A stretch of DNA of 64,000 nt from an uncultured Desulfovibrionaceae bacterium (GCA_964368455.1 CAYJAZ010000009.1:14941-78940), one strand, 5' to 3'. Positions 2,347 to 61,591 are shown, counted from the stretch's first letter. The notes: generated by a model not told the origin, from the letters alone. Program-made: numbers and translations.

Positions 2347-5300
2347 GAAGAACATCCTAATCAAAAGAAGACCAAAGTGGCTGAAATAAAAATCACAAAA
2401 AAACATATAATTTTCCTTTCTTTATGGGGTGTACTTGCTACTCTCATTCTCTACGTCTATCTCACTTTTTTACAACCTACTAAATTTACACCATTTATTC
2501 AAAAAAACGTACAAGAATACATTCCAGAACTTTCCTTTAATCACGTAGATTTCACTCTTTTCCCACGTTTAGGCGTTGAATTTACAGGCATACAATATAA
2601 AAATGAATTCAATGACTATAGTTTAGACATTGAAGCCACTGCTTTATTGGCTCAAATGTCTTGGATTTCATTATTTAAAGGCGATTTTGACATTGCTCTT
2701 GCTTCCTTTGTTCAGCCATCAATTTCGCTTGAACACAAAACAAATCAAGAACAAGGTGTAGAAGACACGCAAGTTTCTAAAAATGTCTTACCACTTTCAG
2801 CTTCAAAATTGCATGCTCTTGTGCCTACTCATCTACAAAGAACAAGATTTGAAGTTCTTGATGGCGAATTTTATTTCATTCCTTTACAAACAAATAAAGA
2901 ATATATAGATACTTATTATCTTAATGCGATAAATCTCAATCTTGATGCTTTTAAAAATTTCGACTTAGCTATCAAAGAATTTAAACTTGTACAAACCTCA
3001 AGTCCTGATAATATTGCACAAAATCATTCTTTTTCAAATCTTGCATTAAGTTTGAAAGATATAGTTCTTACACAAGAAGATCTTACTGCAATGCTCAATT
3101 TAAAAAGTGATATTTCATTTTTTGATGCAAAAGTCGTATCAAATGTCGAAAGTAAGGGAAAGATTGCTCTCAACCAAGATTTTAGCTTCAAACCTTTAGA
3201 ACAAAAATTAACTTTTCTTTCAACATTTAACGTAAAAAACCAGCAAATTCCTTCTAAAGCAGACTTTATCTTACAATACATAGACAAGAACACTTTAACT
3301 ATTAAAGACGCAAATATTAATATTGAAGAAAATAAAGTCTTCCTTTCAGCGGAGCTCACAAATCTACTTTCTGATCCAAAAGCGCATATACAAGCAACTT
3401 TCAAAGATCTTTCCATACCAAGATGGTTGAGCTATACAAGACAAGTTCCTAATTCTCTCATGAGCGAATTGAATAAGGTGGAGGGTTCTTTTTCTGCGAC
3501 ATTAGACAAAAATGCCCTTATTACAAACGATCTTAGAGCAAGCACAAACAATAAGCATATTGTCGAAGCAAAGGTAGATTATAATTTTTCTGACGGCCAT
3601 AAACTTCTTGTAGATGCCTATATTCCAAAACTTAATGTCAATCTACTCTTCCCTGTTTTAGAACACAAAACACTTCCTCTTGTAAGCTATGCCAACGAAA
3701 CTCTTGACTCTCTTCTGCATTCAAATAATCCAGACAAAGAAGTCAAATTTGACTATAATATTAAAGTAAATGCCAATGATGTCACTTTTTGGAAATATAA
3801 TTTTAGAAATATAAATCTTTCTGTAATTCCACATGAAAAAGGCGTGCAAATACCTGTAGAAATAACACATTTCTTTGATGGCTCTCTCACGTCAAAACTC
3901 ATTATTCACGATACTATTGACATAGACACAAATATTGTTGACACCAATGTAGAAGAATTATTTAAAAATATCACAAAGAACAGCCCTTTAGCCGGTATGT
4001 TCAATTCTCGTATAAAGATAAGCTTACAGCCTCAAAGCGAACTTGAAAAAATGTTTTCAAAGCCTGCATTAGACATTGAAGCAAGTTTGACTAATGGAGC
4101 TTTCAATCCTTATGATAATGCTTTTAATTTCAAAAAATTTGCTGCACATTCAAAGGTTTCTGAAATTCGATTCCCTGCTAACATTTCAGATATATACGGT
4201 TTTTTTGGCGAACATTCACTTGAACTATTAAAAGACGAACATGCTTTAAAAGTTCATATCCCAAAAACAGACTTGCTTTATAATATGCATACCGGTTTGC
4301 CTGATAGCATCTCTTCAAGCTATGCCTTAGTTGAATACGAAAATAGTTTCCCTTTACATTTTCTTACAAATGGTATGTTGAGATTTGACTTTCCTAATCA
4401 GCACATTGTTTATGATGATATAAAGGCTAGCCTTTATAACGAAAAAATCACAGCTTCAATTGACTTCACTTCCTTTACAAATCCAAATATCAAGGGTGCA
4501 GCTTCTTTCTATGCTAAAGACTTAAAAGGCTTTTTGAAGAAATATAAAATAGATCTGCCAAAATTAAGAGACGAAACTGCTCTTTCTCAAGCTGGCTTAA
4601 ATTCTACCTTTACCTATGCTGATAATCTTCTAAAACTCTCTAATCTTTCAGCAGAACTTGATAATTATTCTTTTACAGGCAGTCTAGAATACGATTTCAC
4701 AAATACAAAGCAAAGTGTTTTTGCCCTTTCTTCGCCTTTCTTTAATGCCGATCGTTATTTAGATTTTGCTAAAAAATCTAACAGTACGCCTTTTTCTTCT
4801 GACGCTCTTTTACCAATAGACTTTATTTCAAGTATAAACACTGTTGGTTCTCTTTCTTTTGACGAACTTTGGATTGTGCGAACACCTTTTTATAATGCTA
4901 ATATCCCAATGTCTTTCAACAAAGGCACTATTTCACTTACCCCAACTGCCCTTTTCCCTACTTCTGGAAGCATAGCAACAAATCTGAATATACAAACAAC
5001 AGCACATTCTTTAGACTATGCCCTTCAAGCAAAAGCAAAAGATATTGATATGCTTGCAATAACACAAGCACAAGGATTAGAAACTCTACTTGCAGGCACA
5101 GGCACTTTTAGCCTTAATGCAAAGGGAACTGCAACAAAAGAATCTGACATTTTTGAAAATATGCAAGGCGATTTTTCTTCATGGATAGAGCATGGTTTCT
5201 TTATCAATAGTACAAAATCTGTAAAAGCAACATCTTATAAAGATCCACCTGTGAAAAGTCCTTATGTTCCTAAAAATCTCAAAACCTCTTTTTCCTTATT

Positions 5301-19698: not shown

Positions 19699-21769
19699 GC
19701 CTCTAGTCAGTATTTTTATGGCAACATATAATCATGCAGCTTATATTGGACAAGCTCTTGATTCTTGCCTAAAGCAAGAAACTACTTTCGATTTTGAAAT
19801 TGTTGTGTGCGATGATTGCTCAAACGATGGAACTTCAGAAATTATTAGAGAATATGCAAGAAAATATCCTCAAGTAGTTCCCTCTATTCAGCCTGTAAAC
19901 ACAAAGGCCACAAAAAATTTCATGGACGGTTTAAATAAACTTCGTGGAAAATATGTTGCTTTTTGTGAAGGTGATGACTTTTGGACAGACACAAATAAAT
20001 TACAAAAACAGATCTCTTTCCTAGAAGAAAATCCTGATTTTACAGTCTGTTGTCATAAAGTAAAAATGCTTGACATGGGAAAAGGCGAAGATCAAGACGA
20101 TGTTTTCATCTATAAAGATATGCGTTTTGATGAAAAACGTATTAAAGAAGGTATTTTTTACGCAGATGAAGCCATTTCAAACTATTTCTTTCAAACCTCT
20201 TCAGTTGTTTTTCGCTGGAGGTTCACAGAGGGTCTGCCAAATTGGTTCACTCTTTATATGCTACTCGATCATTTTTTATTTATGCTGCATGCAGTAGAAG
20301 GAAAGATTAAATATTTTGATGAAGATATGAGTGTTTGGCGTAGGCATCCAGGTGGATATTCATGGCTTCAAACCATAAATAAAGGATTGTTTTTTAGACA
20401 GAAATATGCTGACTGGATTATAGTCTATGAAGAAATGGATAGATTTTTCTCCTATCGCTTTACTTTGCAAATAAGGGAGCGTATTTTATTGGTTTTGCGT
20501 AATCTTATCTCCCATTACATGCAAACTAATCAACTTGAACAAATAAAAGAAATCTCTCAGAGATTTAAAAAATATTTTGATAAGCCTGTTCTTGAAAACT
20601 CTATCATTTTAGATGCAATGCGTATTGCCATGCCTGAAAATAGGGAGTTTTTTCCTCCTTGGGTCACAGATATTGATGGCTATAATCATTCTAAAGAGCA
20701 AAATTCTGTTGAAAAATCGTTAGGCAGTTTCTTTGAACTTGATATTAATTCAATGCCAAAATCTGAAAATAGTATTTGGGATTATTGGGTAAATAATAAT
20801 GAAGTAGCTACATTTGCAAATCCAACGCAAGCGCTTATCTCACTTCTAATGCATTATGGGATAAGAACTCTATGGCTTCCTTCCTATGCTCATCCGCATA
20901 TAGCAGAAATAAAAGATAGAATTCCTCTGGCCATAAGAATATACCCTATTAATTCAAATTATGAACCTATGCTAGATTTTCTTGATGTTATACCACAAAA
21001 TGAAGCCGTTCTTTTATATTCCTATTTTGGTAAAGGCATAAGCTCTCACCTTGAAGAAGCCATTTCACAAAGACAAGATATATTGTGGATAGAAGAGAGA
21101 AGTCAAGCTCTTTGGACAAATAAAGAGCCAAAAGGGCAAGTGATTATATATAAGCCAAGCGAACTTCTTGGAGTGCCTGACGGCACTTTACTTGTAGGTA
21201 AAGGAGTGAGCACAATCAAGCCATTACAATCGCAAGGCCACCCAAAATCATTTTACGAAAAGCTAGAATTTGCAATTGATCGTATGGAAAATACTTCTCC
21301 TGATGCAAAACAGATCCTCAAATATAGTACTATCACACAAAGACAACATTTACCTCAAGGTAGAGCGTCAAAACTCACTATTGAAATGCTAAAACGTATA
21401 CCTTTAATGCCTATAGTGGAAAAAAGAATAAGAAATTGGAAATACCTTTATAAACATTTAAGAGAATATTCCTTTTGGCAAGAAGAAAATCTCGACTTTG
21501 CACCTTACTGTTTTTGCTTGATCACTCATCCACAGGGAGAAAAAAAATATCCAGTAGACATGCTCACAGCCATTTTGAGTAATCAAAAAATCTTTTGCCT
21601 GCCTCACATGGAAGTAAAGGCAGATTATAGATGTTTATTCAAATATTTCTTGACTTTATTGCCTTGCGATCAACGTATGGAAATAGAAGATTTAGACAGA
21701 ATGATCACAATTATAAAAGAGTATATGAGAGGCGAAATTAGCCCTAACAAAGTAGCAGCTTGGCAATAA
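19685..21769 (+). CDS. GT2 glycosyltransferase fused to a ~350-aa C-terminal domain of unknown function (paralog of 43077..45161)
   Basis: I chose the ATG at 19685 (SD ggagag) over the ORF-track start 19607. The GT2 N-terminus is VSIFMATYNHAAYIGQALDSC...VCDDCSNDGT...CEGDDFW. The C-terminal half has an ELLGVPDGTLLVGKG string faintly reminiscent of PLP fold-type I enzymes. Confidence 0.7.
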   Translation: MLENKPLVSIFMATYNHAAYIGQALDSCLKQETTFDFEIVVCDDCSNDGTSEIIREYARKYPQVVPSIQPVNTKATKNFMDGLNKLRGKYVAFCEGDDFWTDTNKLQKQISFLEENPDFTVCCHKVKMLDMGKGEDQDDVFIYKDMRFDEKRIKEGIFYADEAISNYFFQTSSVVFRWRFTEGLPNWFTLYMLLDHFLFMLHAVEGKIKYFDEDMSVWRRHPGGYSWLQTINKGLFFRQKYADWIIVYEEMDRFFSYRFTLQIRERILLVLRNLISHYMQTNQLEQIKEISQRFKKYFDKPVLENSIILDAMRIAMPENREFFPPWVTDIDGYNHSKEQNSVEKSLGSFFELDINSMPKSENSIWDYWVNNNEVATFANPTQALISLLMHYGIRTLWLPSYAHPHIAEIKDRIPLAIRIYPINSNYEPMLDFLDVIPQNEAVLLYSYFGKGISSHLEEAISQRQDILWIEERSQALWTNKEPKGQVIIYKPSELLGVPDGTLLVGKGVSTIKPLQSQGHPKSFYEKLEFAIDRMENTSPDAKQILKYSTITQRQHLPQGRASKLTIEMLKRIPLMPIVEKRIRNWKYLYKHLREYSFWQEENLDFAPYCFCLITHPQGEKKYPVDMLTAILSNQKIFCLPHMEVKADYRCLFKYFLTLLPCDQRMEIEDLDRMITIIKEYMRGEISPNKVAAWQ

Positions 21770-43076: not shown

Positions 43077-45161
43077 TTACCATGCCTTTACTTCTTCTTT
43101 TTTTATTTGCCCTTGCATATACTTATTCACTAATAAAATAATTCTATCTAAATCATTCTTACTGTAACGTTGATCACAAGGCAGCAACACAATCTCAGAA
43201 AGTCCATTGTATGATGTATTTTGTGTTTTTTGCCCTAAAGAAAGAGGGTGAATATTTTGATTTGCTAAGAGTGTGAGTAAAACATCTTTTGGCAAAACTT
43301 GCGATTTATTATAGGGTATGCGAATTGGATACGCATAAGGAGCAAAATCAACTCTTTCGTCTTTCCAAAGAGCAAATTCCATTAAATGCTTTGCCAAATA
43401 TTCCCAATTTTCTTTACGTTTTTGTGCTAAAGGTAAAAGCGGGATACGCTTCAATATATCAATTGTTAATTGAGAGCATGCATTTTGTGGCAATTCTTCT
43501 TTTTCGATAATTTTATTGTAAGTCAAAATATCTTGGGTAGATAGATGCATTGTTTCCATGCGTTTTACTGCTAATTCCAAAAATTCAAAATAATGTGCAG
43601 AATGTATGGCTTTTTGTTTTGGCTGTAAAACACTCATCCCCTTGCCCACAAGCAATGCACCATCAGGCACGCCCAAAAGGTTTTTTGGAAAATAAATACA
43701 CGCGTCTGCCTTTGAAGCAGTTTCAATAGACAAGGCTTGGCTTCTGTCTTCAATCCAAATAATATCTTTGCTTGCCAGTAAGGCGTCTTCAAAATTTTGT
43801 GAAAGAGCTTTTCCAAAAGGAGCAAAAGTCAGCACTACTTCTCGAGCTTTTACTTCATTAAGAAAAGATGGATCGACATTAAATTCTCTATCTACAGCAT
43901 AGAATTTCGGCATTAATCTCAATGGTTTTATGAGATTTTGATTAAAATAGGGAAAATACGAAGGCAACCAAATATCCTTACATCCATGATGCCATAAAAA
44001 AGCCATTAATGCCTGTATATTATTACTAAAAGCAGCGTATTCCTCATCTTGAACCCAAGATGTAAAAACGCTGTCTTCAATACTTGGAATAGACTGTATA
44101 TCAAGTTCAAAAAATGAACCTATAGCATTTTCTCTGTCTGTATTTTCATCAGATATTGTCCCACTTCTTTCGCTTGATTGCCATGGTGGAGAAAAAGTTC
44201 TTTCTTCTGGATAAACTAAACGTAAAGCATCAAGCATAATAGCATTTTCAAGCACAGGCTTTTCAAAATATCTTTTATAATTGATATACAATTGCTTAAT
44301 TTCTTCAAATTGGCTTGTCTGCATATAATGACTCACGAGATTACGCAAAACAAGAAGATTTCTTTCTCTTATTTGCAAAGTGAAGCGATAAGAAAAAAAT
44401 CTATCCATTTCTTCATAAACATATATCCAATCTTCGTATTTTTTTTGTGCAAATAGGCCTTTATTTATAGTTTGAAGCCATGAATATCCACCTTCATGCC
44501 TTCTCCATACGCTCATATCTTCATTAAAATATTTAATTTTGCCCTCTACAGCGTGGAGCATAAAAAGAAAATGATCAAGAAGCATATTTAACGTAAACCA
44601 ATCTGGCAAACCATCTGTAAATCTCCAGCGAAAAACAACTGAAGAAGTTTGAAAAAAGTAGTTTGAAATAGCTTCATCTGCATAGAAAATACCATCTTTA
44701 ATACGCTCTTCGTCAAAAGTCATATCTTTGTAAATAAATACTTTTTCTTGCGAAGCTCTTTTTTCTGTATTCATATCGAGCATTTGCACTTTATGGCAAG
44801 CAACAGAGAAAGTCGGATTCTTTTCAAGAAAATCTACTTGCTTTTGTAGTTTTTCCTCGCTTATCCAATAATCGTCTCCCTCGCAAAAAGCTACATATTT
44901 TCCTCTGATACGTTTCAAGCCTTCTAATAAATTTTTGGAAGTCTTAGTATTATGTTCTTGAAATGAAAGTATAATATTAGAATGCTTCTCAGCATATTTT
45001 TGCACTATTTCACGTGTTCCATCATTCGAACAATCATCGCATACAATAATTTCAAAAGGAAAATCAGTTTTCTGCATAAGACAAGAGTCAAGAGCTTCAC
45101 TAATATAAAATGCGTGATTATATGTTGCCATGAATATGCTGATTAAAGGGCTTTCTTGCAT
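43077..45161 (-). CDS. GT2 glycosyltransferase fused to a ~350-aa unknown C-terminal domain (paralog of 19685..21769)
   Basis: ISIFMATYNHAFYISEALDSC...VCDDCSNDGT...CEGDDYW. Long near-identical blocks are shared with the + strand paralog. Confidence 0.7.
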   Translation of the reverse strand: MQESPLISIFMATYNHAFYISEALDSCLMQKTDFPFEIIVCDDCSNDGTREIVQKYAEKHSNIILSFQEHNTKTSKNLLEGLKRIRGKYVAFCEGDDYWISEEKLQKQVDFLEKNPTFSVACHKVQMLDMNTEKRASQEKVFIYKDMTFDEERIKDGIFYADEAISNYFFQTSSVVFRWRFTDGLPDWFTLNMLLDHFLFMLHAVEGKIKYFNEDMSVWRRHEGGYSWLQTINKGLFAQKKYEDWIYVYEEMDRFFSYRFTLQIRERNLLVLRNLVSHYMQTSQFEEIKQLYINYKRYFEKPVLENAIMLDALRLVYPEERTFSPPWQSSERSGTISDENTDRENAIGSFFELDIQSIPSIEDSVFTSWVQDEEYAAFSNNIQALMAFLWHHGCKDIWLPSYFPYFNQNLIKPLRLMPKFYAVDREFNVDPSFLNEVKAREVVLTFAPFGKALSQNFEDALLASKDIIWIEDRSQALSIETASKADACIYFPKNLLGVPDGALLVGKGMSVLQPKQKAIHSAHYFEFLELAVKRMETMHLSTQDILTYNKIIEKEELPQNACSQLTIDILKRIPLLPLAQKRKENWEYLAKHLMEFALWKDERVDFAPYAYPIRIPYNKSQVLPKDVLLTLLANQNIHPLSLGQKTQNTSYNGLSEIVLLPCDQRYSKNDLDRIILLVNKYMQGQIKKEEVKAW

Positions 45162-51896: not shown

Positions 51897-52184
51897 GTTT
51901 TTTTTGCCTCCGGCGGCCAAAGAGAAAGTAAAGCTGTTTTTTTTGCCTCCGGCGGCCAAAGGAAATAATTTCCTTTGGAAACCTTTATATGCAAGGTAAG
52001 CACATAAGAGATTAATTTAAATCGATTTTTAGAATCCGAAAAAGTTTTAAGCTGACGCTTAAATACTTTTTCGAGTTAAAATCTGTTTGCTAAAGATTTT
52101 TTTTATTTGTTCAATAGCTGTAATTGGAATAGCCTTGACTCGTCATTGCGAGAAGCTCACACAGTGAGCGACGTGGCAATCTAT
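51897..52184 (+). repeat. Modular intergenic repeat, copy A (forward), with a 26-bp tandem duplication of its first module
   Basis: gttttttttgcctccggcggccaaag occurs at 51897-51922 and 51936-51961. Palindrome ccaaaggaaat-a-atttcctttgg is at 51956-51978. The long hairpin is at 52037-52073. The cgtcattgcgag...gcgacgtggcaatctat module is at 52141-52184. All of these are shared with 55642-56275. Confidence 0.9.
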
Positions 52185-54564: not shown

Positions 54565-55630
54565 TAACACTCAAAAAATTGATCTCCTTTCTTTTTCTTT
54601 CGAAGAATTAGAAGCATACATTGTTTCAGAATTGAAACAACCTAAATTTCGTGCCAAGCAATTATGGGAATGGTTGTGGAAAAAAAACATTTCTTCTTTT
54701 GATGAAATGACTTCATTATCCAAAGATTTCAGACAAATACTCTCTGAAAAAGCTCAAATAATAAAGCTCACCCTTGTCGATAAACAAGAGTCCACAGATG
54801 GAACAATAAAATTTCTGCTCGCCCTGCCAGACAATGAACTCATAGAAACCGTACTCATTCCATCCTACGATAGAGAAGGCAAAAAACGCATAACACAATG
54901 TATCTCTTGCCAAGTTGGCTGTGCTATGGCTTGCACTTTTTGCAGTACAGGAACACTTGGTTTCACACGTAATATGACAATGGGCGAAATATTAGGGCAA
55001 ATTCAATTCACAAGAAATTATCTTGACGATAACGATCCCTCACATCCAATCATCAGAAATATCGTCTATATGGGTATGGGCGAACCCCTGCTCAACTTAC
55101 AAAATACTATAAAATCATTACAAACTCTCAACCACGATCTCGGCCTCGCTTTCTCGCCACGTAGAATCACAGTTTCCACATGCGGTATAGAAAAAGGACT
55201 TGAAGAACTCAGCGATAGCGGCCTTTCTTATCTAGCTATCTCACTTCACGCATCAAACCAAAATCTACGTGAAAAACTTATGCCAAAAGCAGCAAAAGCA
55301 TGGCACCTCAACGATCTTGTCAATAGTCTAGCTGACTATAAACTCAAATCAAGAGAGCGTATCACACTAGAATATCTCCTCATTGGCGAAGTGAACGATT
55401 CCATCGAAGATGCAAAAGAATTAGTGCGAATATGTTCCTATCTCAAAGCAAAAGTAAACCTCATTCCATACAATGAAACTCCACATTCAAAGTATACAGC
55501 TCCAAGTCAAGAAAGATTAAGAGCTTTTCAAGAATATCTCAACGAAAAAAGAATTGTCGCCGTCTTCAGAAAAAGTAAAGGTGCCGACATTGCCGCCGCT
55601 TGCGGTCAGCTCAAAGCAGAACAAATGTAA
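54554..55630 (+). CDS. rlmN: 23S rRNA/tRNA (adenine-C2)-methyltransferase RlmN (radical SAM)
   Basis: PKFRAKQLWEWLW, CISCQVGCAMACTFCSTG, MGMGEPL, the C-terminal ACGQL. I chose the ATG at 54554 (11-nt overlap with dus) over the ORF-track start 54482. Confidence 0.9.
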   Translation: MSNNNTQKIDLLSFSFEELEAYIVSELKQPKFRAKQLWEWLWKKNISSFDEMTSLSKDFRQILSEKAQIIKLTLVDKQESTDGTIKFLLALPDNELIETVLIPSYDREGKKRITQCISCQVGCAMACTFCSTGTLGFTRNMTMGEILGQIQFTRNYLDDNDPSHPIIRNIVYMGMGEPLLNLQNTIKSLQTLNHDLGLAFSPRRITVSTCGIEKGLEELSDSGLSYLAISLHASNQNLREKLMPKAAKAWHLNDLVNSLADYKLKSRERITLEYLLIGEVNDSIEDAKELVRICSYLKAKVNLIPYNETPHSKYTAPSQERLRAFQEYLNEKRIVAVFRKSKGADIAAACGQLKAEQM

Positions 55631-55641
55631 AGCGAGAAAGA

Positions 55642-55870
55642 TTTTGCCTCCGGCGGGCAAAGGGAATAATTCCCTTTGCAAACCCTAGTATGCAAAGGGA
55701 GTGCGTAGGGGGTTAACTGAAGAAGTTAAAATTTATTTTTTTATTTGCGAAAAAGTTTTAAGGGTGAAAGACTAGCGTCTCTCACCCTTAAATACTGTTT
55801 CGCTTTAAAATAGTGGAATAGTAAGATAGCATAAAACAAGTTGCCATTTGTCACTGTGTTCCAAATGTGA
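55642..55870 (+). repeat. Modular intergenic repeat, copy L (forward)
   Basis: ttttgcctccggcgg, then palindrome gcaaagggaat-a-attccctttgc (55657-55679), tatgcaaaggg-agtgcgtaggg, the long hairpin at 55747-55803, and the catttgtcact..gttccaaatgtga module at about 55843-55870. Confidence 0.9.
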
Positions 55871-55947
55871 ATAAAGCATTAAATTCCCACCTCTAAAGCT
55901 TACTCAGCTGTTCAAAACAATAAATGTAAATAAAAAAAAGAAAAAAC

Positions 55948-56275
55948 ATAGATTGCCACGTCGCTATGCTCCTCGCAATGACGAGGCTAATATATTTCTT
56001 TCAGGACTTTCGATTTTACTACTCTTACATTGCACAAAATAATGAAATCACATTTGGAACGTAGTGACAAATGCTAACTTAATCTCAATTAGAATTAATT
56101 TACACCCATTTTAAAGCGAAACAGTATTTAATGTTTTGATGCGAAGCAACAAAACTTTAAAACTTTTTCGCAAATAAAAAAATAAAACAAAATTCCAAGC
56201 AACACCCTACGCACTCACCTTGCATATAAAGGTTTCCAAAGGAAATTATTTCCTTTGGCCGCCGGAGGCAACAAA
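55948..56275 (-). repeat. Modular intergenic repeat, copy R (reverse orientation, tail-to-tail with copy L)
   Basis: The reverse complement carries the same modules in the same order: palindrome 56236-56258, hairpin 56116-56171, catttgtcact module 56048-56077. It also has the cattgcgaggagcatagcgacgtggcaatctat module (55948-55982). Confidence 0.9.
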
Positions 56276-56285
56276 ACAATAAAAA

Positions 56286-56323
56286 CAAAAAAAGAGCCAT
56301 ACTTTCGCGTGGCTCTTTTTTTA
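56286..56323 (-). terminator. Terminator of the TRAP dctQM gene (bidirectional shape)
   Basis: agagcca-N10-tggctct flanked by an A-run and a T-run, 15 nt after the stop at 56338. Confidence 0.65.
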
Positions 56324-56337
56324 TTTTATTTTCTTTA

Positions 56338-58224
56338 TTAGTTTACAAATATTAGTGGTAGTGCTGGTATATATGTGATGAGTAGGAGCACTGCGATCAT
56401 AATTGCGAGTAATGGTACGATTGCTACTGAGAGCTCTGAAATCTTAGATTTTGTGATAGAGCTAGCAACGAAGAGGTTAACACCAACAGGCGGAGTTACG
56501 AAACCAATCGCGAGGTTAACAACCATGATAATACCGAAGTGAACTGGATCTACGCCAAGTTTTGTCACAATTGGTAGTAAGACAGGTGTAAGGATAACGA
56601 TAGCGGCAAGTGCTTCCATGAATGTACCTACAAAGAGTAGGAACACGTTGATGATGAGTAAGATAAGTATTTTATTTTCTGTGAATGCTAGTATAGCTCT
56701 TGCTATTGTTTCTGGCACTTGTTCGATAGTCATGATATTACCAAACAAAGTTGCGAGTGCGATGAGTATGATAATTGAACCTGAGGAGGTTGCTGATTCA
56801 CCTAGATATGCCCAAAGGCTTTTGAGTGAAAGTTCTCTATAAAGGAATACGCCAGCGATAAGTCCGTAGAATGCAGCAACAGCGGCAGCTTCGGTTGGTG
56901 TCATGATTCCGCCATAGATACCACCGAGCACGATGATTGGAACTAAGAGAGCCCATTTTGCATTCCACAATGCTTTGACGAGTAATGCTGGGCTTTTTTC
57001 TTTTTCTTCACCCATCCATCCTTTTCTTTTCGCGTAGAAATAGGTGAACACCATGAGTGCTATACCTGTTAATAGGCCAGGAACGATACCGCCCATGAAG
57101 AGCTTACCAATGGATTGGTTTGAAGTGATACCATAGATAACAAATGGATTTGAAGGTGGAATCATAACGCCGATAGCACCAGCAGCGGCAACGACAGCTC
57201 CTGAGAAGAATTTATCATAACCACGTTCAATCATGGCAGGAATTGTGATCATACCGATAGCGGCAACGGTTGCAGGTCCTGATCCAGAGATAGCGGCAAA
57301 GAACATACTTGCACCAATACTTACAAGAGCGATACCGCCTGGCAAGTCGCCGAGCATATAGTCAGCAAGGTCGAGTAATCTTTTTGAAAGGCCGCCACCG
57401 CCCATTAATACGCCAGCAGCGATAAAGAATGGTATAGCCATGGTTGGCATGGAGTCGATAGCTGTGAATGGAGTTTGAGCTATATAGATAAGTGGTAAGG
57501 ATTCAGCACCGATGATTGTTGCTAATGTTGCCAAACCAAGACAAATCGCGATTGGCACGCCCAAGAAGAGCATGATAAGAAAATAGCCAAACAAGAGTGT
57601 GAGCACGCTGAAATCGTCGTATAAGAAAATCGGACATGCAAGTATTGCAAAAGCAATAATACCGATGATCATATCTACAAAGCCAGATTCTTTGAATTGT
57701 CTGTAGAAATCTTGTAATAAACGTATCATCATAAGGCCAAAGCTGAGTGGCAATATGAAATAAGGTATATAATATGGTATTTGCATAGCTGCTGTGAGCT
57801 GCTTGAATTGGTATTGCTTTTGTAGATATTCAATACTTGTATTGAATATTGTTGCGGCAAGAGCAAAGAAAGCTAAATCAACAACAAACCATGAAATACC
57901 TTGTACTCTAGGTGATAATCTGTCGTAAATAATATCAACGCGGATATTGTTACGCAGTTGGATTGTGAGTGGAATGGCCATATAGGTTGACCAAATAAAC
58001 ATAAAACGTGCTAATTCTTCTGTCCAAATTGGCACTGAAAAATCAGGAAAAAATTTTGAGAATATGTATCTGCCTAAAGATTGGTATACAATAAGTGCTA
58101 TTGCACCTACTAAACCAAAAATCATAAAAGGTTTTTCAAAATTATGATTGAGAAATGATAATATTGAAGTTTCTTTCACTTCTTCTGGAATAAGAAATGG
58201 ATTGTTTTCTAATTGATCACTCAT
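56338..58224 (-). CDS. TRAP transporter fused small/large permease (DctQ-DctM fusion)
   Basis: 628 aa. A DctQ-like N-terminal region of about 170 aa is followed by a DctM-like body (GIALVSIGASMFFAAISGSG, GVMIPPS). Confidence 0.85.
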   Translation of the reverse strand: MSDQLENNPFLIPEEVKETSILSFLNHNFEKPFMIFGLVGAIALIVYQSLGRYIFSKFFPDFSVPIWTEELARFMFIWSTYMAIPLTIQLRNNIRVDIIYDRLSPRVQGISWFVVDLAFFALAATIFNTSIEYLQKQYQFKQLTAAMQIPYYIPYFILPLSFGLMMIRLLQDFYRQFKESGFVDMIIGIIAFAILACPIFLYDDFSVLTLLFGYFLIMLFLGVPIAICLGLATLATIIGAESLPLIYIAQTPFTAIDSMPTMAIPFFIAAGVLMGGGGLSKRLLDLADYMLGDLPGGIALVSIGASMFFAAISGSGPATVAAIGMITIPAMIERGYDKFFSGAVVAAAGAIGVMIPPSNPFVIYGITSNQSIGKLFMGGIVPGLLTGIALMVFTYFYAKRKGWMGEEKEKSPALLVKALWNAKWALLVPIIVLGGIYGGIMTPTEAAAVAAFYGLIAGVFLYRELSLKSLWAYLGESATSSGSIIILIALATLFGNIMTIEQVPETIARAILAFTENKILILLIINVFLLFVGTFMEALAAIVILTPVLLPIVTKLGVDPVHFGIIMVVNLAIGFVTPPVGVNLFVASSITKSKISELSVAIVPLLAIMIAVLLLITYIPALPLIFVN

Positions 58225-61466: not shown

Positions 61467-61591
61467 AAATTCAGAGATTTTGTAGAATTTTCAACTAAAA
61501 TGGATTTTCTGCGGAATGGAGTGTATAAAATAATACATGATTGGAGCAAAAAATTCACTTTTAGGAAGAAAAAATACAAAAGAATGAATTT
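61467..61591 (+). repeat. Copy 2 of the ~125-bp leader-like repeat (copy 1 at 2219..2346)
   Basis: Same orientation as copy 1. It has a 16-codon uORF (61537..61587) whose TGA overlaps an ATG at 61584. That ATG opens only a 23-codon ORF running into the convergent RNase II gene. Confidence 0.85.

Follow-up and report, generated by a model that had tools for sequence, protein, structure and literature searches.

The window, by which we mean the whole 64,000-nucleotide stretch of DNA that was analysed, contains a composite of 634 nt lying between the gene for RlmN, whose stop codon is at 55628-55630, and a minus-strand gene for a fused DctQ-DctM TRAP permease, whose stop codon is at 56338-56340. 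An earlier note made from the sequence alone had described this composite as two inverted arms around an A-rich centre, lacking any ORF of at least 60 aa and any obvious target-site duplication, and our analyses agree with it on each of these points. Arm L (55642-55870, plus strand) and arm R (55948-56275, minus strand) share 172 of 228 positions (75%, BLAST E 1e-39), and a repeat search divided the inverted similarity in the composite into four blocks, one of which is a perfect 30-nt repeat (55732-55761 / 56157-56186). The 77-nt centre (55871-55947) is A-rich, the longest ORFs overlapping the composite have 54, 47 and 44 aa, and a second inspection of the ends showed no target-site duplication. 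The outer flanks are T-rich when read toward the element and thus extend the inverted repeat rather than forming a direct repeat. The boundaries first given can be refined, as the true termini of the composite are two 11-nt sequences, here called heads, at 55646-55656 and 56259-56269. Beyond the element the TRAP gene retains its own terminator hairpin (56294-56315 plus a T-run). The features of the locus, including the hairpins P1, P2 and P3 of each arm, are as follows.

55631-55645, plus strand: leader from the rlmN stop codon to the left head, ending in TTTT
55646-55656, plus strand: left head GCCTCCGGCGG, the invariant 11-nt terminus
55657-55679, plus strand: left hairpin P2, GCAAAGGG..CCCTTTGC, with a stem that covaries among copies
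55747-55803, plus strand: left hairpin P3, long, with base GCGAAAAAGTTTTAA / TTAAATACTGTTTCGC invariant in genome G000 and a variable tip
55845-55867, plus strand: left hairpin P1, CATTTG..CAAATG with loop TCACTGTGTTC; the left arm ends at 55870
55871-55950, no strand: A-rich centre between the two units
55951-55986, minus strand: central module of a second repeat family, CCTCGTCATTGCGAGG..CGACGTGGCAATC on the minus strand, with ~113 copies in the genome
56051-56073, minus strand: right hairpin P1; the inner end of the right arm is at 56048
56116-56171, minus strand: right hairpin P3, with a tip unrelated in sequence to the left P3 tip and equally self-complementary
56236-56258, minus strand: right hairpin P2, CCAAAGGAAAT..ATTTCCTTTGG
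56259-56269, minus strand: right head, CCGCCGGAGGC on the plus strand, the outer terminus toward the TRAP permease gene
56294-56322, minus strand: intrinsic terminator hairpin GAGCCA..TGGCTC with flanking A- and T-runs
51938-52031, plus strand: third, partial family member in the window, with a tandem-duplicated head, P2 and other modules

The terminator at 56294-56322 lies between the TRAP stop codon and the right head and is therefore outside the element, and the central module at 55951-55986 is part of a right-hand unit of ~330 nt. The head itself can form a 3-bp mini-stem, of which the middle pair occurs as C-G or T-A alleles among the copies. The P2 stem carries a position-specific G·T wobble on the opposite strand, the P3 tip changes by compensation while the P3 base covaries in congeners, and P1 has a stem that covaries between species around a conserved loop. 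The partial member lies ~20 nt beyond the stop of the gene before it, and its head is duplicated with a period of 39 nt. Two other repeats in the window are unrelated to the head family: a direct repeat of ~125 nt (83%) near both ends (2220-2345 and 61467-61591), and an inverted repeat of 570 nt (77%) whose copies are 23.5 kb apart (20093-20662 and 44181-44750).

Folding the 634 nt as a single strand gave one long arm-to-arm hairpin, as had been predicted, with an energy of -250.7 kcal/mol as RNA (z = -17.2) and -166.7 kcal/mol as DNA (z = -19.4); in both cases 0 of 20 shuffled sequences folded as well.

The composite is not a single-copy sequence. Genome G000, the source of the window (2.74 Mb in 65 contigs, 34% G+C, 99.7% complete), gave 138 BLAST matches to it, and the terminal motif GYCTYCGRCGRSCAAAGG, which covers head and P2, occurs 62 + 64 = 126 times in this genome, compared with 0 occurrences of the reversed control pattern. 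The consensus of the 11-nt head is GYCTCCGRCGG. Neighbouring full-length units are arranged as 33 head-out pairs, 5 tandem pairs and 0 head-in pairs, and when head-out pairs were identified by their head markers, 33 of the 41 were 450-750 bp apart. Alignments between these doublets span their entire length and are much stronger when the two are set in one relative orientation than when one of them is reversed, so that the doublets are asymmetric entities that have been copied whole. The clearest example is given by C14:53246-53850 and C19:12459-13064, which are 98% identical over 626 nt with flanks that are unrelated beyond ~25 nt. At three other loci a block of ~355 nt comprising the central module and one arm is 100% identical, and the partner arms are 85-91% alike; such a mosaic indicates gene conversion in addition to copying. 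The head family is thus copied as DNA within genome G000, and gene conversion alone, without transposition, could be the source of the identical blocks.

Several smaller arrangements were seen in the same genome. A minimal element of 45 nt, consisting of a head, P2 and an inverted head, lies at C3:38836-38880 between infB and a convergent gene, and infB keeps its own terminator there. On contig C38 (~5040-5104) a complete head comes immediately after three clean tandem 19-nt units, each consisting of a head that lacks its last base and of TTTCTTTTT, an arrangement that suggests slippage as the source of the head-like remnants found in many leaders. The second repeat module, TCGTCATTGCGAGG..variable loop..CGACGTGGCAATC, is present in its ~113 copies both in doublet centres and in tandem arrays with a period of ~470-530 nt (C1:124710, 125195, 125684; C1:68373, 68862, 69347). 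These arrays do not contain the 230-nt arm and therefore represent at least one further repeat family.

An arm of ~230 nt opens at its outer side with the 11-nt head and P2; a conserved box and then a T-run lead to the long P3, and a variable stretch separates this from P1 at the inner side. One arm per doublet adds a module of ~100 nt from the second family in the centre. An alignment of 46 arms showed long invariant blocks separated by hairpins, and RNAalifold together with pair counting supported P1, P3, P2 and the 3-bp head stem. Paired cells amounted to 98.6%, compared with 92.1% in shuffles and 38-54% in slid controls; 13 pairs had changed on both sides, and the covariation score of 0.185 (0.071 in shuffles) was reached by 0 of 500 shuffles. 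The congeners G002 and G005 have the same arm architecture with further compensation. In these two genomes CATTTG/CAAATG of P1 is replaced by CATGT/ACATG or CATCT/AGATG with the loop unchanged, and GCGAAA/TTTCGC at the base of P3 is replaced by GCGGAA/TTCCGC or GCAAAA/TTTTGC. In locus L212 (contig C78 of G005, minus strand from 1152) the P3 tip holds an unrelated insert of ~120 nt, so that the tip may be a point of insertion.

The exceptions to Watson-Crick pairing are informative about the strand. Positions of this kind in the stems are nearly always A·C on the gene-sense strand, that is, G·T on the other strand, and the ratio of antisense to sense G·T is 51:3 in G000 and 15:1 among the hairpins of the listed loci of other genomes. 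At one P2 position G-C was found 24, G·U 14 and A-U 8 times. Hairpins are therefore kept by compensatory change with wobbles tolerated on one strand, the one antisense to the neighbouring gene. Because the wobbles are confined in this way, we take the folding strand to be the one that runs from the centre outward, on which the head is the 3' tail of P2, with some caution, since many copies share descent and the folding energies of whole arms do not favour this strand. Those energies (sense -64.8, antisense -62.9 kcal/mol) proved uninformative as a strand test.

We also looked for co-evolution between the two arms of a doublet, and this was rejected: partner arms are 73.6-73.7% identical, slightly less than arms of different doublets (75.4-76.2%), and by similarity the partner arm falls into the lower half for 22 of 26 doublets. 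Nothing therefore indicates that selection or conversion holds the arms complementary. The long foldback folds well in silico, yet what is conserved is the set of local hairpins inside each arm. Sequence conservation is strong along the whole 230-nt arm, beyond its ends, and this exceeds what a selfish element normally needs.

The position of the units relative to genes was then considered. By crude ORF-based gene calls, 89 of 111 full units have a head that abuts the 3' end of a gene, with a median distance of 23 nt to the stop codon; 17 others face a 5' end, the median distance being 89 nt. Units were counted in 14% of the spacers between convergent genes, in 1.7% of those between tandem genes and in 0.7% of those between divergent genes. 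The median convergent spacer is 623 nt when it contains a doublet and 84 nt when it contains no unit, and 623 nt corresponds to the doublet plus ~20 nt on each side. The family is thus almost confined to spacers 3' of genes, mostly between convergent genes, and nearly fills them. At most copies other than the left arm of the composite the leader is a short T-rich stretch with a T-run, often accompanied by degenerate tandem head-like remnants. About 13 of 115 heads, including the one on the TRAP side of the window, lie downstream of an intact canonical terminator.

The earlier note had proposed that the composite could act as a strong bidirectional terminator, and this role is not favoured. A simple scan for a hairpin plus a T-run found nothing within the element that would be a consistent terminator, whichever direction was read; it flagged P3 in ~20-26 of 115 units and the central module in ~15-17 of 115, and no site was common to most units. 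A canonical terminator within 120 nt follows 5% of the genes that have a head within 60 nt and 13% of the others. The central module was considered as a sense-strand terminator because its folding favours the sense strand, and was rejected: its wobbles (64 versus 47) are not clearly asymmetric once a constant G·T is set aside, and a T-run follows only half of the copies.

Comparison with relatives showed that the family is patchy. Among ten congeners the number of heads per genome was 133 in G005, 58, 54, 54 and 49 in four others, 4 in two and 0 in three; two other genera of the family had 86 and 70 heads, and no heads were found in 16 genomes of other families of the order. The arm of ~230 nt is recognisable only in G000, G002 and G005, and elsewhere the head and P2 are combined with other modules. 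The DNA that follows rlmN, where a comparison had been proposed, varies among the ten congeners: G007 has a shorter head element, G008 a degenerate one, G002, G003 and others plain terminators, and in the remaining genomes the contig ends. This variation means that the element is not conserved intergenic DNA; the other possibility named in the earlier note, ordinary conserved spacer sequence with no further copies in the genome, does not describe what was found. At another doublet locus G002 has an unrelated spacer of 200 nt. A clean pair of filled and empty sites was not found among the relatives, because the nearest of them are too diverged (~75-79% DNA identity in genes) and contigs break at repeats. 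Target duplication was looked for in the DNA beside 133 heads and beside doublet copies that are nearly identical, and only the inverted T-rich leaders were seen.

At least 116 stretches contain the exact 18-mer of the head. Their sources are many members of the Desulfovibrionaceae and MAGs of other phyla; the MAG labels among the matches listed were Acidobacteriota, Christensenellaceae, Oscillospiraceae, Selenomonadaceae, Rhodospirillales, Acetobacteraceae and Thermoguttaceae. A compensated hairpin follows the head in each of the matches listed. The terminal 11-mer and the first hairpin are therefore common to sulfate reducers and to MAGs of unrelated phyla. Carriage by phages was considered and rejected, as 2.9 million viral contigs contained only 2 exact head matches.

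The earlier note had also suggested a search for an autonomous partner with matching ends, and none was found in G000, in 40 relatives or at the 116 listed foreign loci. G000 has a single Y1 transposase (PF01797), an IS200 TnpA of ordinary type encoded on a contig of 2.6 kb, and the hairpins that flank it are unrelated. The IS200 gene (149 aa), which lies within locus L043 (C62:635-2652), adjoins a GGDEF/EAL-like gene, and G000 otherwise appears almost free of IS elements. Y1 transposases of the RAYT/IS200 type were rejected as the partner since their genes do not follow head counts across 41 genomes: the head-rich G002, G004 and G005 (133 heads) have no Y1 match and many head-free genomes have one. 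TnpB was not found in G000. A DUF559 nuclease (PF04480) was not found in G000 or in 10 congeners, and IS110 and IS91 are absent from G000 and from nearly all the head-rich relatives examined, so that these candidates were rejected as well. Retroposition was considered on account of the T-run before the head, the stacked tandem head-only remnants, and the shared head end with a variable other end. It was rejected because no reverse transcriptase gene (PF00078, RVT_1) was found in the head-rich genomes G000, G002, G004, G005, G008, G015 and G020, and because the variable inner parts are different modules and not truncations.

No gene is enclosed by a head-out pair in G000. The infB gene and the gene for AdoHcy hydrolase looked head-bracketed, and in this case one of the "heads" was a chance match. 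Clustering of the 717 ORFs within 400 nt of heads, across the 116 listed foreign loci, gave ordinary genes only and no recurrent protein family. No transposase family that was tested accounts for the head family. The element had no match in Rfam 15 at gathering or permissive thresholds; gathering scores were reached only by a tRNA of the window and, at one foreign locus, by an SRP RNA. Among the papers searched, none has the head sequence in a relevant context, and a word search for such a Desulfovibrio repeat gave nothing relevant.

Among known systems, the closest comparison is with the REP sequences and REPINs that are mobilised by RAYT (TnpA-REP) transposases (Bertels & Rainey 2011, PMC3116915; PMC3337134). 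Like REPINs, the head repeats are extragenic hairpin repeats in tens to hundreds of copies placed 3' of genes, their functional unit is an inverted doublet, and a short invariant motif lies beside the hairpin foot. However, the arm of the head family has ~230 nt and three hairpins where a REP unit has ~20-40 nt, no RAYT gene accompanies the head repeats, and the invariant 11-mer is 3' of the hairpin on the folding strand where the REP tetranucleotide is 5' on the active strand. Furthermore, REP families are usually lineage-specific, whereas the head and first hairpin are common to several phyla.

The BIMEs, or bacterial interspersed mosaic elements, of Escherichia coli, for which binding of gyrase, IHF and Pol I has been described, resemble the head family in being mosaics of modules in varying order in post-gene spacers (here the head, P2, P3, P1 and a central CGTCATTGCGAGG-type module) and in the alternating orientation of their palindromic units. 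The head family differs in that its modules have no sequence relation to the E. coli ones and its elements are far longer. Correia elements (CREE/NEMIS) of Neisseria and the ERIC/IRU sequences of enterobacteria have 100-155 nt, and Correia elements duplicate a TA target. They are similar to the head family as orphan palindromic intergenic repeats with no known transposase, located in transcribed spacers and conserved beyond one species; they differ in that head elements have ~580 nt, show no duplication and keep a strict orientation to the neighbouring gene. The ends of IS200/IS605 elements and of their gene-less derivatives (PATEs) have subterminal hairpins and no target-site duplication. The head family shares with them the subterminal hairpins followed by a short conserved tail to the end, the strand-specific structure and the lack of a target-site duplication, but its two ends are reverse complements of each other, the sole Y1 transposase of G000 has unrelated ends, and TnpB is absent from that genome.

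On balance, we consider that the 634 bp are probably a single full-length doublet belonging to a repeat family that is palindromic, modular and non-autonomous, REPIN/BIME-like in character and MITE-like in layout. This reading follows from the doublet being inverted and gene-less and from the family being multi-copy, extragenic, copied as a unit and patchy among species. The family is apparently undescribed. It is set apart from the systems above by the length and internal conservation of its arms, by the absence of a transposase family working without target duplication, by the polarity of its hairpins, and by the cross-phylum 11-mer and first hairpin. The proposal of a large MITE or foldback element in the earlier note holds in part: the composite is a gene-less multi-copy unit with long imperfect terminal inverted repeats and folds as a long hairpin, but no autonomous partner was found for it and arm-to-arm pairing is not what has been selected.

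If the proposal is taken further, to a classical MITE derived by internal deletion from an insertion sequence of the DDE type, the heads would be the terminal inverted repeats and the transposase acting in trans would have been lost, left unassembled or passed unrecognised. The terminal inverted repeats without an ORF, the discrete length of the head-out pairs, the whole-element copies at different loci and the minimal 45-nt version with two heads around one hairpin would all suit such an origin. Against these stand the lack of a target-site duplication, the lack of an ORF within any head-out pair of G000 and of a recurrent protein family beside the heads at the 116 listed foreign loci, and also the hairpin covariation and strand asymmetry, which are unexpected for ends that are cut and pasted as double strands, and we regard this origin as very unlikely. 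The element might instead be an immobile cis-element of the host, a modular 3'-UTR or insulator cassette serving as an exonuclease barrier or unconventional bidirectional terminator and spread by homologous recombination only. This would account for heads that share the orientation of the gene and lie a median of 23 nt beyond its stop, for units that fill convergent spacers, for the lower frequency of canonical terminators after head-followed genes, for the ordinary terminators after rlmN in congeners that do not have the element, and for a whole arm that is conserved with no transposase present. It would not account for a polarity of tolerated wobbles opposite to the mRNA of the adjacent gene, nor for the same doublet at unrelated loci or the patchiness within the genus (0 to 133 heads per genome); moreover, a consistent hairpin plus U-run is missing inside the element in either direction and ~13 of 115 heads lie beyond an intact canonical terminator. 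Such a cassette therefore seems unlikely.

The hairpins themselves raise another explanation, that each arm is a gene for a structured non-coding RNA of ~230 nt read from the centre outward, so that the doublet would be a divergent gene pair antisense to the flanking 3' ends. The compensatory changes in three hairpins, with G·U tolerated on the centre-to-outside strand only, and the loops and linkers that are conserved across species while stems covary are what such an RNA would show, and the locus has a promoter-like TTTACT-17-AATAAT whose last base, 56043, is 5 nt short of the start of the right arm, as well as a terminator after the right head. However, the spacing of the promoter-like sequence varies between copies, a terminator beyond the head is missing from most of them, and whole-arm energies do not favour the centre-outward strand. 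At the inner end of the arm conservation breaks off sharply, and the flanks upstream of it are not conserved. There is also no matching Rfam family, and more than 100 copies with duplication of whole doublets would be unusual for sRNA genes. We consider this explanation quite unlikely, although the strand polarity taken alone fits a single-stranded intermediate and RNAs read from the centre outward equally well. A wider alternative is a distinct class of repeat without a transposase of a known family, composed either of single-stranded modules on which an undiscovered hairpin-recognising enzyme, common to several phyla or transferred between them, would act, or of divergent pairs of ~230-nt antisense RNAs. 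Here the placement at stop codons would belong to the mechanism itself and would not merely reflect selection; to this we give a low probability.

Returning to the REPIN/BIME-like reading, how the family moves and what it does is something that we infer from the arrangement of the copies. The centre-outward strand would be the one that folds in the working form of the element, and this form would most likely be a single-stranded DNA intermediate recognised by an enzyme, as at REP/RAYT or IS200/IS605 ends. The host would then filter the orientation and position of the element. In the orientation that is observed, the upstream mRNA would have CCUCC just after the stop codon and no consensus Shine-Dalgarno GGAGG there; the opposite orientation would put GGAGG a few bases after the stop, and the strict gene-ward orientation may thus be due to selection. 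A deletion bias could trim dispensable spacer DNA as far as the heads. If the partner is a new enzyme, this would be a REP/RAYT-like system with a different catalyst, and if it is host machinery, the family would show that repeats can persist and spread without a dedicated enzyme.

From ~126 arm termini of roughly 230-330 nt each, we estimate that the head family makes up ~1-2% of this compact 2.7-Mb genome. In practical terms the repeats give rise to spurious small ORFs and mark the 3' ends of genes. They also break short-read assemblies, and many contig ends in G000 and its relatives fall within them. The contigs C1 (~14.8-91.4 kb) and C2 (~14.3-90.9 kb) of G000 have identical spacing of repeat copies in opposite order; this mirrored series points to a large region that is duplicated or was assembled redundantly, which is consistent with an estimate of 6% contamination for the assembly.
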